From: a phage
Sequence record: PZ386965.1
Direction: 5' to 3' (one strand)
DNA length: 64,000 bases
Both the position numbers and the translations under genes were made by a program. This document shows positions 16,881 to 51,510 of the stretch, one piece after another. Position 1 is the stretch's first letter; each line of letters opens with the position of its first letter. Under the pieces are notes generated by a model, which saw only the letters and a list, made by a program, of their open reading frames with translations, did no database searches and was not told the origin of the DNA.

Positions 16881-16922
16881 AACGAGAGAATTATACTCAT
16901 CTCTCAAGAGTTTGTATATTAT
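16881..16922 (-). promoter_or_regulatory. early promoter / stem-loop cassette
   Basis: TATAAT -10 on minus strand embedded in GAGAGA/TCTCTC inverted repeat. Confidence 0.5.
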
Positions 16923-17158
16923 TTTTTAAGCATGAAAAGTAAGTAATTTGTATCACGTGGAGTAATATCAACACCCATATCAAAGATGCCTTTATAGATT
17001 GGGTATTTGTTTTCGGTTGTATCGAAGCTGAAACTATTTCCATCACAACTAACAGTAATAGCATCTGTTAAAATGTCATACTCAATCCTAACAATTGAAT
17101 CCCCAATTTTAACGTCGAGGTGTTTTTTGAATTTGATAAAATCTAATTCTTGGGCCAT
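16919..17158 (-). CDS. hypothetical protein
   Basis: Track ORF. Confidence 0.5.
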   Translation of the reverse strand: MAQELDFIKFKKHLDVKIGDSIVRIEYDILTDAITVSCDGNSFSFDTTENKYPIYKGIFDMGVDITPRDTNYLLFMLKK

Positions 17159-17170
17159 GATATTTTCCTC

Positions 17171-17222
17171 ATTTTAAGACGATAGGAAGATAATAACATG
17201 TCTTCCTATCGTTGTACATTAT
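17171..17222 (-). promoter_or_regulatory. early promoter / stem-loop cassette
   Basis: GATAGGAAGA...TCTTCCTATC inverted repeat plus TGTACA -35-like. Confidence 0.45.
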
Positions 17223-17434
17223 TAACCGAACTTTTTAGCGCCTTTCCAGCCTTCGTACATAACTGCACAAGTCAATAGTACAGCATGTTGGCATTCTTTG
17301 TATTTGTAAATCCAGAACCAGCGTAAGAAGTCTTCATCCTCAACACCATTGAGTTTCATGTTGGCAAAGAATTCGGCACGTTCTTCACGAAGCTTTTGCG
17401 ATAACATAGATTCAGGATTCATTTTATATTCCAT
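17222..17434 (-). CDS. hypothetical protein
   Basis: Track ORF. Confidence 0.45.
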   Translation of the reverse strand: MEYKMNPESMLSQKLREERAEFFANMKLNGVEDEDFLRWFWIYKYKECQHAVLLTCAVMYEGWKGAKKFG

Positions 17435-17646
17435 GCCCCATTTTCATCGATGAACTTAATCCAGTCATTTACAGACCATTTAGTTGTATCACCCTTTGGA
17501 TTAACATTTAAAGTATATAATCCCTGCTTAAAAAGCATTCGTTTGATATTCATAATTTCCTCAACTGTAACGATAACATTCGTTAGCTTTACGTTTGGCT
17601 TCAGTATGAGAAGTATTATAATCATACTCTTCTTTACTGTAAACAT
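17419..17646 (-). CDS. hypothetical protein
   Basis: Track ORF. Confidence 0.4.
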   Translation of the reverse strand: MFTVKKSMIIILLILKPNVKLTNVIVTVEEIMNIKRMLFKQGLYTLNVNPKGDTTKWSVNDWIKFIDENGAWNIK

Positions 17647-17854
17647 CTTTTTTCAACTTACGAACTTCTTTGCGGAGTTGTCGATTCATTTCATTCTTGA
17701 CTTCAGAATCAACACCTTTCATACGTTTCCATTTATCTGAGCGGAAGATGTTTTCAACCATGTCTTTGTGGCTAACACCATCAGGAGCTTTACGCTTACC
17801 AAAATAGTCGTAATCGCGAACTTTCAAATCTTTACGACGATATGTTTTACCCAT
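17561..17854 (-). CDS. hypothetical basic protein
   Basis: Track ORF trimmed; overlaps neighbour in another frame so one of the pair may be spurious. Confidence 0.35.
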   Translation of the reverse strand: MGKTYRRKDLKVRDYDYFGKRKAPDGVSHKDMVENIFRSDKWKRMKGVDSEVKNEMNRQLRKEVRKLKKDVYSKEEYDYNTSHTEAKRKANECYRYS

Positions 17855-17861
17855 AAGTACC

Positions 17862-18110
17862 TCAGAGGTTGATTGATACAATGCGTTTGATAAAATTCAC
17901 TTCACTTACTGAAAGGTCTTTAAGACCGATTGATTCTAAACGCTGAGTAAGCGTCAACATCGGGATATAATCCCAATGAGTTTTATTTGCTTGATAAGTA
18001 CGAACGCCATTAGCAATTTCAACATGCAAATCTGAAATGGTAACGAATACCAGACGCTCATCATTAACTTTAAGGGTTAGAACAACTTTCTTTGAATCTA
18101 AACTAATCAT
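17862..18110 (-). CDS. hypothetical protein
   Basis: Track ORF. Confidence 0.45.
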   Translation of the reverse strand: MISLDSKKVVLTLKVNDERLVFVTISDLHVEIANGVRTYQANKTHWDYIPMLTLTQRLESIGLKDLSVSEVNFIKRIVSINL

Positions 18111-18289
18111 AGTTTAATTTCCTTCGCGATTGAACAGAAGATACCACGGTCACAAAGCAGTTCACCAATTTCTGGATATTTGATTGAACGGTACCAAACA
18201 TCCAGGCTTGAAATTCTGGTTATCTGTATTGCATTACCGTTGACAGAATAGTACTGGTCAACCTTAATTTCTTTATCTTCAATTGACAT
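18107..18289 (-). CDS. hypothetical protein
   Basis: ATG with AGGAAA RBS. Confidence 0.4.
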   Translation of the reverse strand: MSIEDKEIKVDQYYSVNGNAIQITRISSLDVWYRSIKYPEIGELLCDRGIFCSIAKEIKL

Positions 18290-18456
18290 TTTGTTTTCCT
18301 CTGTGGTAGATGATGCTAATCTTAACATATCTATCGAGGATGTAAACTGTTTTATGAAAATATTTTTGATTTGAGAGGGGCACAAGGAGATAGTGAAGTG
18401 AAGATTCTAATGGATTATATTAGAAATAAGGATAAAGAAGACCAGGCGGCACCTGG

Positions 18457-18780
18457 TCAATCTTCTATGATATCAGAGTCGTATCCTAATGAAATCAAGG
18501 ACTTTTTAAACTCTGCAATATTCTTTTGTTTCTTATCATTTAAAAATATGACAGGATAACGAATATTAAGTGAAGTGAATCCTGCACGTTTAGCAAGAGA
18601 TACGATTAAAGGACGATCATATTCAATCTTACCATTATTAGTGAGGACTTTATAAAATGTATAAGGAGCATTGAGCTCCTTTAAAAGTTTTGTAACGGTA
18701 TAACATCCTGGACAACGTCCAACTTCTTCAGGGATGCCATAGACTTCAATCTTATTCTTTAAGTTCGAGTTTTGTTCCAC
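18457..18780 (-). CDS. nrdH: glutaredoxin-like protein (NrdH-like), probable GTG start
   Basis: CPGC redox motif after KIEVYG strand; T4 nrdH position; GTG with AAGGAA RBS. Confidence 0.65.
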   Translation of the reverse strand: MEQNSNLKNKIEVYGIPEEVGRCPGCYTVTKLLKELNAPYTFYKVLTNNGKIEYDRPLIVSLAKRAGFTSLNIRYPVIFLNDKKQKNIAEFKKSLISLGYDSDIIED

Positions 18781-49997: not shown

Positions 49998-50074
49998 TGG
50001 TCGAGACAGAAGGATTCTAACCTTCAACCTACGGATTAGAAGTCCGTTGCTCTATACAATTGAGCTATGCCTCG
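49998..50074 (-). tRNA. tRNA-Arg (anticodon UCU), CCA encoded
   Basis: Hand-folded cloverleaf: acceptor CGAGGCA/TGTCTCG, D-arm GCTC..GAGC, anticodon arm ACGGA-CTTCTAA-TCCGT, T-arm GAAGG-TTAGAAT-CCTTC. Confidence 0.8.
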
Positions 50075-50080
50075 AATATA

Positions 50081-50154
50081 TGACCCAGACCAGATTCGAA
50101 CTGGTAACCTTTCCCTTATGAGGGGACTGCTGCTAACCATTGAGCTACAGGGCC
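50081..50154 (-). tRNA. tRNA with CAU anticodon (Met or lysidine-Ile)
   Basis: Hand-folded: D-arm TAGCTCAATGGTTAGC, anticodon loop CTCATAA, T-arm ACCAG-TTCGAAT-CTGGT, acceptor with one mismatch. Confidence 0.7.
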
Positions 50155-50250
50155 TAAATAACTTTCTATTATGAAAGGCACTTGAGGGAGCACCTTTGGT
50201 AATAGAGGGTAGATTAATAATAACACATAATTCTTAAAGCAAATTACGTT

Positions 50251-50541
50251 TTACCGTACCATATTAATGTAGTTATATTCAATGCAACGTAATTTCAAAG
50301 GGTTCTTGAAAATATCATATTCAAGAGGGCCTGATTCAGTTTCAATAAAGAAATCAAAGTTCACACTATTAAATTTGCGGTCTTCCCAAAGTAATTTAAC
50401 CTGTGAAGATGAACGGTCGACGTAAACCTTTTCAACCTCAAAGTTAGTCAGAATACCGTAGTCATCGACTAGTGCTTTAGCTGCACGTCGGTCACTTTCA
50501 TATCCATTCTCAACGGATTTTACCTTAGCATAAAGAATCAT
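50251..50541 (-). CDS. hypothetical protein
   Basis: 96-aa ORF. Confidence 0.5.
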   Translation of the reverse strand: MILYAKVKSVENGYESDRRAAKALVDDYGILTNFEVEKVYVDRSSSQVKLLWEDRKFNSVNFDFFIETESGPLEYDIFKNPLKLRCIEYNYINMVR

Positions 50542-50900
50542 GAATGTTCCACCACTTCGAAGGTATGAGCATCAACAATATGATACCAGTCAAAATTTTC
50601 TTCTGCGTTTTTATAAATTTCGCGAAGAGCATCCACAGTTTTTCCTGTAGCAACAAGGTCGTCAATACCACCAAGAGGATAACAGTCATAACCAGCAAAC
50701 AGAAGGAAATTAATAGTTTCTGTAGGTTCTGGATGCAGTGTACCATTGTCATCGACTACTTCAAAGAACATATAACCAGGCGATTTAGTTTTAATCCAAG
50801 CCCATGCTTGAGCCGCTGAATCAAATGGTCTGCGTATCAAACGACAATCAGTGTCTTTAGAAGGATTTGCTTCAAAATCCGCATATACATGATATTTCAT
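50538..50900 (-). CDS. hypothetical protein
   Basis: 120-aa ORF. Confidence 0.5.
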   Translation of the reverse strand: MKYHVYADFEANPSKDTDCRLIRRPFDSAAQAWAWIKTKSPGYMFFEVVDDNGTLHPEPTETINFLLFAGYDCYPLGGIDDLVATGKTVDALREIYKNAEENFDWYHIVDAHTFEVVEHS

Positions 50901-51107
50901 TTACTCACCTTTTGCAATTTTATCCATAACGATAGCGATTAAGCCGATTAGAAATGCTACTACCAATGAGATAGAATTTTCGGTTGTTGTCAGTAGTCCG
51001 CAAATGAATCCTACAAACATCGAAAAACTAAAAGCCATTGAAGCAATTACTACAGCAACATTACGAATCAGTTCAGCGCGTTTCATTTTATTTCTCCATT
51101 TACTCAT
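50901..51107 (-). CDS. small membrane protein
   Basis: Two hydrophobic segments. Confidence 0.5.
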   Translation of the reverse strand: MSKWRNKMKRAELIRNVAVVIASMAFSFSMFVGFICGLLTTTENSISLVVAFLIGLIAIVMDKIAKGE

Positions 51108-51152
51108 TTGTTTTGATAGGACTACTATAACATAGTCCTATCGGCATGTAAA
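51108..51152 (-). promoter_or_regulatory. early promoter / stem-loop cassette (high-identity copy)
   Basis: TTGATAGGACTACTATAACATAGTCCTATCGGCATGTAAAC. Confidence 0.55.
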
Positions 51153-51156
51153 CTAC

Positions 51157-51444
51157 TTACAGAAGAGTTTTTGCAATAATTTTAAGTTGAGCTACAGAAA
51201 TATGCTTAGCTTTAAACAGTGCGGTCTCTTCAGCCGGAGAGATAACAATAGTAGCGCCATCTTTCTTAGCAGACCATCCATCCCCTAAGTAAACAGTACC
51301 TTTTACTTCTTCGCCGTCAACCAGACTAATCATTGGTTTACCCTCACGGCCTTTGTTTGCTTTAATAACTTCGGAAGTAAGGGTTGCTTCGGTCAGAGTA
51401 GAAACGTTAGCAACAGGTGATATAAATTCTTTATAGGTTTTCAT
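51157..51444 (-). CDS. internal head protein (capsid-targeting N-terminus; ipI position)
   Basis: MKTYKEFISP start; 95 aa; adjacent to 57B as T4 ipI. Confidence 0.7.
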   Translation of the reverse strand: MKTYKEFISPVANVSTLTEATLTSEVIKANKGREGKPMISLVDGEEVKGTVYLGDGWSAKKDGATIVISPAEETALFKAKHISVAQLKIIAKTLL

Positions 51445-51460
51445 TTTATTTCCTTGAGGT

Positions 51461-51510
51461 TGTTTATTTGATAGGATGATAGTAACACACCATCATCCTT
51501 ATGTAAACCA
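51461..51510 (-). promoter_or_regulatory. early promoter / stem-loop cassette
   Basis: AGGATGAT..ATCATCCT inverted repeat, GTAAAC element. Confidence 0.5.

Follow-up and report, generated by a model that had tools for sequence, protein, structure and literature searches.

The window, the whole 64,000-nucleotide stretch of phage DNA analyzed here (record PZ386965.1), carries dispersed copies of a cassette in which an early promoter is combined with a hairpin, on the minus strand and in most cases directly upstream of a small open reading frame (ORF). Over bases 36000-44000, the identity to many coliphages of the genus Mosigvirus (RB69-like, T4-type), e.g., JN02, JK36, and mar005P1, amounts to 96-96.5%, and judged by this value the phage is an RB69-like T4-type phage of the genus Mosigvirus. 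Following the annotation of JK36, RB69, and T4, the genes are ordered 46/47 - 55 - nrdG/nrdD - 49 - pin - nrdC.x - tk - vs - regB - denV - e - nudE - e.x - tRNA - ipI - 57B/57A - 1 - 3 - 2 - 4. All genes from 46/47 through 4 are encoded on the minus strand up to about 55750, followed by the baseplate genes 53, 5, and 6 on the plus strand. The region is the classical early “hyperplastic” portion of a T4-type genome.

The motif search proposed in the initial annotation returned a clear signal. The strict pattern GTTTAC-N16-18-TAYWAT matched 10 times in the window, always on the minus strand, against 0.25 matches expected, and none of 100 shuffles reached 10. A relaxed pattern gave 28 matches on the minus and 3 on the plus strand. 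The generic sigma-70 pattern (TTGACA/TATAAT) showed no excess in the window (58 vs. 48; 64 vs. 70) where the T4-type pattern is enriched; only the T4 early consensus thus carries the signal. Alignment of 22 intergenic copies on their -10 box yielded the consensus aAAA..gTTTACaa-(spacer)-TaTGtTATaAT-a..CcTATCaAaa-aagagga. The unit accordingly consists of an A-tract, a -35 box GTTTAC(A), a spacer of 17-18 bp, an extended -10 box TGnTAYAAT, the start box CCTATCAA, and a leader with a Shine-Dalgarno sequence (SD) and the ATG. The start box CCTATC is strongly conserved from -3 to +2, and the tract upstream (-62 to -37) is 73% AT compared to 63% genome-wide. With transcription predicted from the consensus to start 7 nt after the -10 box, the SD lies about 13-18 nt past the predicted start and the predicted leader measures 20-25 nt in 17 of the 22 copies. 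Stop codon, promoter, SD, and ATG follow each other in gaps of 46-109 nt within a long array of early genes on the minus strand, except at 24760 and 45490, which lie inside the upstream ORFs.

The units carry the sequence hallmarks of T4-type early promoters: a GTTTAC -35 box, a TGn element, a TAnnnT -10 box at 17-18 bp, and a position on the early-gene strand. The T4 early “uber” promoters (UP / -35 GTTTAC / TGn / -10; Hinton 2010, PMC2988021) have the same elements plus “additional regions of consensus” and differ in no element of kind, while activity in the phage of the window is presumed from sequence. The orthologous T4 genes regB, denV, ipI, and nrdC.8 have promoter-consensus units of like architecture. 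From the match to the published consensus, we infer that the units are sigma-70-dependent early promoters together with two MotA-type middle promoters. Two further good early-promoter matches, possible internal promoters, were observed inside coding sequence on the minus strand (17615-17644 and 23011-23040), and T4 and RB69 have them at the same places.

The copies were sorted by the hairpin they carry. In class A (17219, 28392, 32563, 43310, 44602, 47409, 51153, 51508, and weakly 16919), the spacer pairs with the conserved box right behind the -10 box, which itself lies in the loop or the 3' arm. In class B (36668 at regB, 40284 at denV, and weakly 33015), the downstream SD pairs with an anti-SD formed by the spacer directly after the -35 box. 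In class C (25731, 26751, 27800, 47716, and 48214), a stem of 4-6 bp wholly within the spacer closes an invariant AAGGA(U/C) loop. No hairpin was found at 24760, 39542, 45490, and 48001, and at 29868, 33015, and 48586 a separate GC-rich hairpin with a T-run lies upstream. The copies are given below, with z as the fold energy relative to dinucleotide shuffles.

15955..16030, minus strand: middle-promoter version at gene 55; MotA box TGCTTTA, TATAAT, TAGACCTAT box, and imperfect hairpin ATAGG/CCTAT.
16850..16919, minus strand: early, weak class A; ATATAC-N18-TATAAT with 6-bp GAGAGA/TCTCTC and the -10 box in the loop; 110-aa ORF.
17156..17219, minus strand: early, class A; 12-bp CGATAGGAAGA/TCTTCCTATCG across spacer, -10 box, and start box; 79-aa ORF; z -3.6.
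24700..24760, minus strand: early, no hairpin; GTTTAC-N18-TATAAT in the 3' end of the upstream ORF.
25671..25731, minus strand: early, class C; AACC-AAGGAU-GGUU inside the spacer; 313-aa nrdC.3-like gene.
26693..26751, minus strand: early, class C; CAACC-AAGGAU-GGUUG; 319-aa nrdC.5-like gene.
27744..27809, minus strand: middle (MotA box), class C; aacGCTTTAc-N13-TATAAT with ACCC-AAGGAC-GGGU; nrdC.6; listed earlier as copy 27771.
28334..28392, minus strand: early, class A; AGGTCTAT/ATAGACCT; nrdC.8.
29799..29868, minus strand: early, no embedded hairpin; GTGTAC-N17-TACTAT followed by a TAGACCTATC box; nrdC.10; GC-rich hairpin and T-run just upstream at 29888-29915.
32503..32563, minus strand: early, class A; 13-bp hairpin of the TTGATAGGACTAT/ATAGTAGTCCTATCAA type; 36-aa ORF; z -4.2.
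32957..33015, minus strand: early, weak class B; anti-SD UUUUCCUC pairs with GAGGAGAA; mobD.2a; genuine terminator upstream at 33025-33055.
36609..36668, minus strand: early, class B, at regB; spacer TTCTCCTCTAGTTG pairs with SD-containing CAACTAGAGGAGAA over 14 bp; z -4.1.
39479..39542, minus strand: early, no hairpin; GTTTAC-N18-TATAAT; 104-aa internal-protein-like ORF.
40225..40284, minus strand: early, class B, at denV; spacer TTCCTCCAAG pairs with SD-containing CTTGGAGGAA; z -4.4.
43250..43310, minus strand: early, class A; GATAGGACTA/TAGTCCTAT; 101-aa ORF; z -3.8.
44542..44602, minus strand: early, class A; GATAGGGCTA/TAGTCCTATC with one G-U pair; 79-aa ORF; z -3.3.
45399..45490, minus strand: early, no hairpin; GTTTAC-N18-TATAAT inside the e.3 ORF; 101-aa ORF.
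47337..47409, minus strand: early, class A; GAGAGC/GCTCTC with the -10 box in the loop; e.6; z -3.1.
47656..47716, minus strand: early, class C; CGCC-AAGGAU-GGUG; 82-aa ORF.
47941..48001, minus strand: early, no hairpin; ATTTAC-N18-TATAGT; frd.3.
48152..48214, minus strand: early, class C; ACACC-AAGGAC-GGUGU followed by a TAGACTTATC box; 54-aa ORF.
48527..48586, minus strand: early, no embedded hairpin; GTTTAC-N17-TACTAT followed by a TAGACCTATC box; 101-aa ORF starting at 48529; GC-rich UUCG hairpin upstream at 48615-48636.
51084..51153, minus strand: early, class A; CGATAGGACTA/TAGTCCTATC; tRNA.4 (61 aa); z -3.4.
51442..51508, minus strand: early, class A; GGATGAT/ATCATCC, extended to 12 bp; ipI (Pfam IPI_T4); z -3.1.

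About 20 copies at 19 positions had been listed in the initial annotation, and a promoter-like unit was found on the minus strand at all 19; the copies at 48001, 45490, 39542, and 24760 as well as the middle-promoter version at gene 55 had been missed. The length proposed then, about 45 bp, falls short of the conserved span, which reaches from about -45 to the ATG (about 85 bp). The description as a sigma-70-type early promoter fused to a hairpin fits most copies; the one listed at 27771 is a middle promoter with the MotA box aacGCTTTAc and a 13-nt spacer. Likewise, the -10 box and spacer are embedded in an inverted repeat, as proposed, at about 12 of the 19 positions, while at five (25699, 26719, 27771, 47691, and 48171) the hairpin lies wholly in the spacer, and at 29825 and 48541 there is no embedded hairpin, only the separate GC-rich hairpin with T-run upstream.

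Cassettes of this kind have been described as promoter-early stem-loops (PeSLs) in RB49/phi1 (Arbiol et al. 2010, PMC2839356) and in T4/PST and KVP40/nt-1 (Comeau et al. 2014, PMC4122927). These papers give the T4/PST promoter consensus as TTTACW-N17-TAYWAT (Comeau 2014, PMC4122927) and place the stem-loop mostly between -35 and -10 or across -10 (Arbiol 2010, PMC2839356). The annotated unit GTTTAC(A)-N17-TA(T/C)(A/T)AT matches this T4/PST consensus, with a spacer of 17-18 bp in the window. The systems agree in the intergenic AT-rich tract, early promoter, stem-loop, SD, and ATG, in a consensus identical to the T4/PST set, in a stem position as in phi1/RB49, in indels and replacements that join at the elements with inserted ORFs between two copies, and in the presence of middle-promoter versions (PmSL). 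They differ in that the Mosigvirus (RB69-like) lineage lies outside the phages treated there, and that the PST figure draws the stems just upstream of the promoter, a layout that holds here for three copies only (29868, 33015, and 48586). In the window, the early promoter with AT tract, the stem-loop (about 17 of 23 copies), the intergenic position, and indel junctions were all found at the sequence level. By these sequence features, the cassettes add new members to a class already published, the PeSLs, so that the finding is real but largely ordinary. Possibly new are only the anti-SD embedded in the early promoter and the CsrA-like loop family, both treated below.

Hairpins were evaluated on folds of 62-64 nt, from two bases 5' of the -35 box to 32 nt past the -10 box. 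Fold energies reached z <= -2.5 against dinucleotide shuffles at 10 of the 28 relaxed-pattern sites, and nine of those ten are intergenic cassettes. In a swap test over 22 cassettes, spacers combined with their own downstream 44 nt folded at a mean of -11.4 kcal/mol compared to -8.0 kcal/mol with those of other cassettes (permutation p=5e-5); at 17219, the own arms ranked first of 22. A hairpin within or beside the promoter, embedded or upstream and GC-rich, was present in about 17 of 23 copies. In about three-quarters of the cassettes, the spacer, -10 box, and discriminator, i.e., the non-transcribed part, form a hairpin or one of its arms.

It is hardly credible that the repeats are mere paralogous promoter copies that arose by duplication, with inverted repeats that are there by chance or hitch-hiking and no selected structure. 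Near-identity over about 40 nt in four copies (32563, 43310, 44602, and 51153) does point to duplication, but the swap test contradicts this explanation at p=5e-5, even though such family members make that test conservative. At orthologous genes (ipI, tRNA.4, regB, and denV) the architecture in T4 and RB69 is alike while the stems differ, and between T4 and the phage of the window the arms are fully different yet complementary: the ipI stem is TGATGAGGTA/TACCTCATCA in T4 and GGATGAT/ATCATCC here, and the T4 stems of regB and denV read TTTTCCTCTTGACTG/CAGTTAAGAGGAGAA and TCTCCTGTAG/CTACAGGAGA. Double changes in four of the five class C pairs also speak against unselected repeats.

Sense-strand folds were about 2 kcal/mol stabler than antisense folds, with 163 versus 106 G-U pairs, a comparison that includes many near-identical orthologues and is supportive only. 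This asymmetry speaks for a structure in RNA and not for a cruciform. An action of the inverted repeats in DNA, as a cruciform or palindromic site that serves either as operator for a phage repressor shutting off the early promoters or as recombination target of endonuclease VII, is very unlikely. The repeats are centred on the -10 box, gene 49 (endonuclease VII) lies within the window, and in Arbiol 2010 (PMC2839356) one crossover was mapped to the loop of a stem-loop. Yet the stem sequences are wholly unlike between copies (GAGAGA, GATAGGACTA, GGATGAT, TTCTCCTCTAGTTG), which excludes a single sequence-specific binder; the sense RNA is the strand preferred by both G-U pairs and fold stability, the arms of class B are bound up with the SD, and the crossovers observed here lie in the -35 box or the 5' end of ORFs, not in the stems.

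Transcription is predicted to start at the hairpin's 3' edge, and the hairpin would therefore exist only in read-through RNA from an upstream promoter and not in the cassette's own transcript. In the original PeSL proposal, which combines a terminator with a promoter, embedded hairpins would be intrinsic terminators or attenuators of such upstream transcripts. The hairpins do follow directly after stop codons, and in Arbiol 2010 (PMC2839356), one RB49 PeSL stem-loop reduced lacZ expression to an extent similar to that of the rrnB T1 terminator. For the cassettes of the window, however, this role is unlikely. The 3' arms of the embedded hairpins are in no case followed by a T-run but by ATCAAAAC or a similar sequence, and no embedded hairpin was called on the minus strand in a terminator scan of the window. 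Their stems are AT-rich, unlike the polyG/polyC stem tested in RB49, and class B stems contain the SD. Genuine GC-rich hairpins with T-runs are separate elements, found upstream of 48586, 33015, and 29868 and at 46737. With no T-run and no call in the scan, the terminator role of the GC-rich RB49 stem is not simply transferable; the AT-rich stems without T-runs make a terminator role doubtful, and the identity of the embedded hairpins as intrinsic (Rho-independent) terminators was rejected.

The arms of class B were followed in regB and denV loci from IMG/VR, comprising 5 regB and 13 denV lineages, with pairing scored by the duplex energies of cognate versus swapped arms; a MAFFT alignment of the regB leaders put the 3' arms out of register and could not serve to count pairs. 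The anti-SD was located between the -35 box and the predicted +1 in all of these lineages, either right after the -35 box or across the -10 box and discriminator (e.g., GATGTCTTCC/GGAGGACATC). At the denV loci L042, L048, L049, L057-L063, L070, and L071, from several other T4-like lineages, it has moved from the spacer to the -10 box and discriminator, still 5' of the predicted start. Cognate arms paired at -14.5 kcal/mol versus -9.5 kcal/mol for swapped arms in denV (p=5e-5), and at -18.7 versus -12.1 kcal/mol in regB (p=0.008). In every regB and denV lineage, the predicted leader from the own promoter folded at 0 to -0.6 kcal/mol, and RNA beginning at the -35 box at -16 to -23.5 kcal/mol. 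The anti-SD embedded in the early promoter is thus conserved with covariation at denV and regB across T4-like genera.

Accessibility of the SD was predicted as its probability of being unpaired in the own transcript and in read-through RNA. It fell from 0.53 to 0.00 at denV (40284), from 0.68 to 0.00 at regB (36668), from 0.56 to 0.03 at 28392, from 0.64 to 0.07 at 26751, from 0.69 to 0.16 at 33015, from 0.74 to 0.21 at 16919, and from 0.55 to 0.25 at 25731. Taking the predicted start, the SD would be sequestered in read-through RNA at regB, denV, and 33015, and the same is predicted for 28392, 26751, 25731, and 16919. Hairpins that sequester the SD and carry a promoter in their 5' arm are known from T4 e, soc, 49, I-TevI, and mobE/seg (Uzan & Miller 2010, PMC3014915); regB and denV are not among the examples given there. 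In both settings a long transcript would lock the SD or AUG, while a transcript begun in or behind the 5' arm is open. The internal promoter of the T4 e/soc/49/I-TevI type is late or middle and provides temporal control, whereas here it is the gene's own early promoter, with a GTTTAC -35 box like the upstream ones and not of a later temporal class. As it would be active together with the upstream promoters, the expected effect is insulation or coupling and not timing. That some stems are anti-SD arms was a point not found in the accessible text of the PeSL papers.

It is possible, and put forward here as a tentative proposal, that the hairpins serve to insulate translation and not to terminate transcription: within its non-transcribed part, the promoter would encode an arm, either an anti-SD or a CsrA-type AAGGAU hairpin, that silences or couples the gene's own ribosome site on upstream transcripts. 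If so, a cassette would give a context-independent dose wherever recombination drops it, and T4-like early regions would follow this as a general rule of design. A terminating ribosome covers the 5-9 nt between its stop codon and the anti-SD with its footprint, and the upstream stop lies 5-9 nt before the anti-SD in the regB and denV cassettes of the phage of the window, of T4, and of other lineages (TAGTTTAC-TTCTCC, TAACTGTTTAC-TTTTCC). This distance counts for translational coupling instead of silencing, in which the SD would stay locked on read-through RNA until a ribosome at the upstream stop melts the anti-SD arm, so that downstream translation would track upstream translation. The same geometry would arise simply because stop codon and -35 box are tightly packed, and coupling is regarded as a somewhat doubtful explanation.

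The class C helix was compared over 12 copies from the phage of the window, T4, RB69, and other relatives. Pairing was retained in 91.7% of cells versus 69% in shuffles (0 of 500 reached this value), and double changes were found in 4/5 pairs while slid-partner controls gave 27-57%. The loops are located on the minus strand at 25715-25722, 26735-26742, 27791-27798, 47697-47704, and 48195-48202. The T4 orthologue of the nrdC.6 cassette reads TACC-AAGGAT-GGTA, and in T4 the AAGGA(U/C) hairpin was found with early, middle, and near-late promoters. An additional coding hairpin with the same AAGGAU loop, TTTTCT-AAGGAT-GGAAAA, was observed at 36007-36024 (minus strand) in a vs.1-like ORF downstream of regB and is conserved in T4 and Mosigvirus relatives.

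Class C hairpins are candidate CsrA-type sites, where, as in the glgC leader, a host CsrA dimer would bridge the GGA of the loop and the GGA of the SD some 30-35 nt further downstream and either repress translation or be titrated. Known CsrA hairpins (RUACARGGAUGU from SELEX; glgC leader; Pourciau et al. 2020, PMC7652899) share with class C the ARGGAU hexaloop, the short stem, and a second GGA in the SD; they differ in that class C sits in a phage promoter spacer, and the similarity in sequence is no more than a lead. With its hexaloop closed by C-G, the core C-AAGGA(U/C)-G fits the SELEX consensus with its GGA in a 6-nt loop, a T4 copy reads exactly ACAAGGAUGU, and the loop is invariant while the stems covary. 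The 8-mer CAAGGAYG occurred seven times in the window and five of these lie in promoter spacers, but the excess over the 2.65 expected is modest and the copies of the class number only five. Moreover, the loop is itself SD-like (complementary to the 3' end of 16S rRNA), so that other readers could be considered, and a full-text literature search, judged from abstracts, returned no paper centred on CsrA in T4 infection. A role of CsrA appears improbable.

Recombination at the cassettes was followed in collinear BLAST chains, for which 14 relatives gave alignments and 12 aligned along their length. A scan of IMG/VR with the e.6 protein gave only 8 loci, of which one aligned along its length, three in short segments, and one not at all, while three were not used; GenBank phage records took its place. 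The ORF at 47410-47691 is missing in 12 of the 13 relatives covering the site; there, the flanking cassettes 47409 and 47716 were the crossover partners and are fused in their common (A)TAAnTnTACAAAC, with a 15-nt overlap (47415/47707). At 43303/43310, four relatives carry an extra 261-bp ORF between two cassettes, joined at GT(T/G)TACAA, the -35 box. A 65-nt duplication of the cassette at 29797-29861 flanks a 213-bp insertion in two relatives, and at 51422-51476 RB69 has an extra internal-protein gene joined via 55 nt of the ipI cassette and the ATGAAAACCTAT leader. In four relatives, 45490 is the exact end of a deletion. The ends of replacements lie at 36672, 45490, 47965, 48543, 48592, 51097, and 51155. 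The breakpoint at 36672, at the regB cassette, occurs in four relatives, that at 47965 in three, and those at 48543 and 48592 in eight (event 48543-48592/4929x); the cassette 51153 has breakpoints at 51097 and 51153-51158, and one at 16032-16034 adjoins the middle-promoter unit of gene 55. Junctions inside cassettes share 8-65 nt, and through this common sequence the cassettes act as crossover points, in line with the proposal made for PeSLs. Under a uniform null, 15 of 55 distinct breakpoints fell in cassettes, which cover 5.9% of the region, compared to 3.25 expected (p=5e-7).

The best overall explanation, given a probability of roughly 75%, is that the units are early promoters (plus two middle promoters) with hairpins present only in read-through RNA, which are also usable as crossover points. 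Early promoters would fire, and their own transcripts would begin at the 3' edge of the hairpin with a short open leader, while transcripts from upstream promoters would contain the entire hairpin. In class B, and probably in several other cassettes, the hairpin would lock the ribosome site in read-through RNA; a class B gene would then be translated mainly from its own-promoter RNA, or only once the helix is opened by a ribosome that terminates 5-9 nt upstream. Class A hairpins, without T-run and without involvement of the SD, may act on upstream transcripts as an attenuator, a signal for processing, or a barrier in the RNA, and the invariant loop of class C would suggest a trans-acting reader.

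Several points weigh against this explanation. Six to seven promoters have no hairpin, and a single function cannot cover all copies. The SD accessibility was unchanged at the class A cassettes 51508, 51153, 44602, 17219, and 47409 and changed little at 32563 (0.68 to 0.54). Near-identical orthologues inflate the p-value of the strand-asymmetry test. Durand et al. 2006 ascribe the RegB resistance of the T4 denV SD to sequence 3' of GGAG and mention no structure. What is observed are the excess of motif and hairpins, the covariation, and the junction sequences; promoter activity, start sites, read-through, and all roles in RNA are inferred, and a literature search on the mapping of T4 transcript ends found no directly usable data. 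Against a null of gene junctions, the breakpoint excess was not significant, with a breakpoint in 11 of 23 cassette junctions versus 21 of 67 others (odds ratio 2.0, p=0.12), and the non-cassette junctions have comparable microhomologies of 1-39 nt.

No claim of special recombination hot spots is made, because the excess was not significant against the gene-junction null. Repeats at junctions without a promoter also mediate ORF loss: a 23-nt direct repeat, AACTGCGAGAATATTTTAAATGA (23442-23465 and 23723-23746), flanks the ORF 23465-23761, which is missing in four relatives. On the alignments, the cassettes are usable crossover points for the gain, loss, and replacement of ORFs, though not demonstrably privileged ones. 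The module shuffling suggested initially holds insofar as several indels have their exact junctions within cassettes and two cassettes flank some of the inserted ORFs; the proposed correspondence with breakpoints of relatives stands under the uniform null and not under the gene-junction null. By our tally, a cassette lies at one end or at both in about 14 of some 27 variable segments, short of the “most accessory genes” once claimed, and the genes downstream of cassettes were not enriched for lineage-specific ORFs in a rough count based on the RB69 annotation. The initial annotation was partly supported: largely right in its interpretation and overstated on recombination and on “most accessory genes”.

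Other features of the early region were observed alongside the cassettes. Only two tRNA genes, Arg-TCT and Met-CAT, lie at 49998-50154, compared to ten in JK36; in a search of the window with Rfam covariance models, these two tRNAs alone reached the gathering score and no cassette matched. At 50244/50253, about 511 extra bases are present in nine relatives, and others carry a homing-endonuclease gene there. Downstream of the tRNAs, a 375-nt non-coding stretch (49260-49635, minus strand) includes a T-arm resembling that of a tRNA (GGTTCAAATCCCGG), a terminator rich in GC (CCCCTTCCGAAAGGTTGGGGCTTTTTT), and the late-promoter-like box TATAAATA; Rfam and ARAGORN gave no match on it, and in T4 two stable RNAs, rnaC and rnaD, occupy the corresponding position. 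A 216-aa ORF (54505-55155, minus strand) between genes 2 and 4 has low GC (0.349) and an AT-skew of -0.18, and its 675-bp interval is replaced by 29-30 bp in all seven relatives covering the site. With a sub-threshold SegE GIY-YIG domain and NUMOD3 just over threshold in Pfam, it is probably a free-standing homing endonuclease.

The PeSL architecture organises the early region of RB69-like phages too, beside RB49/phi1, T4/PST, and KVP40/nt-1. The cassettes resemble the morons of lambdoid phages as autonomous expression units around accessory genes; unlike them, morons have no conserved flanking repeats and are thought to be inserted by illegitimate recombination, as discussed in Arbiol 2010 (PMC2839356). 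The junctions described here provide base-resolution examples of ORF gain and loss via crossovers in the -35 box, tempered by the finding that recombination at other gene junctions, via short repeats of their own, is about as frequent. A promoter spacer doubling as anti-SD, at denV, regB, and probably several others, would free the expression of accessory genes from their upstream context, and if the anti-SD function holds, such context-independent expression would help cassettes to be freely shuffled. The anti-SD lead also matters for the engineering of T4-like therapeutic phages.

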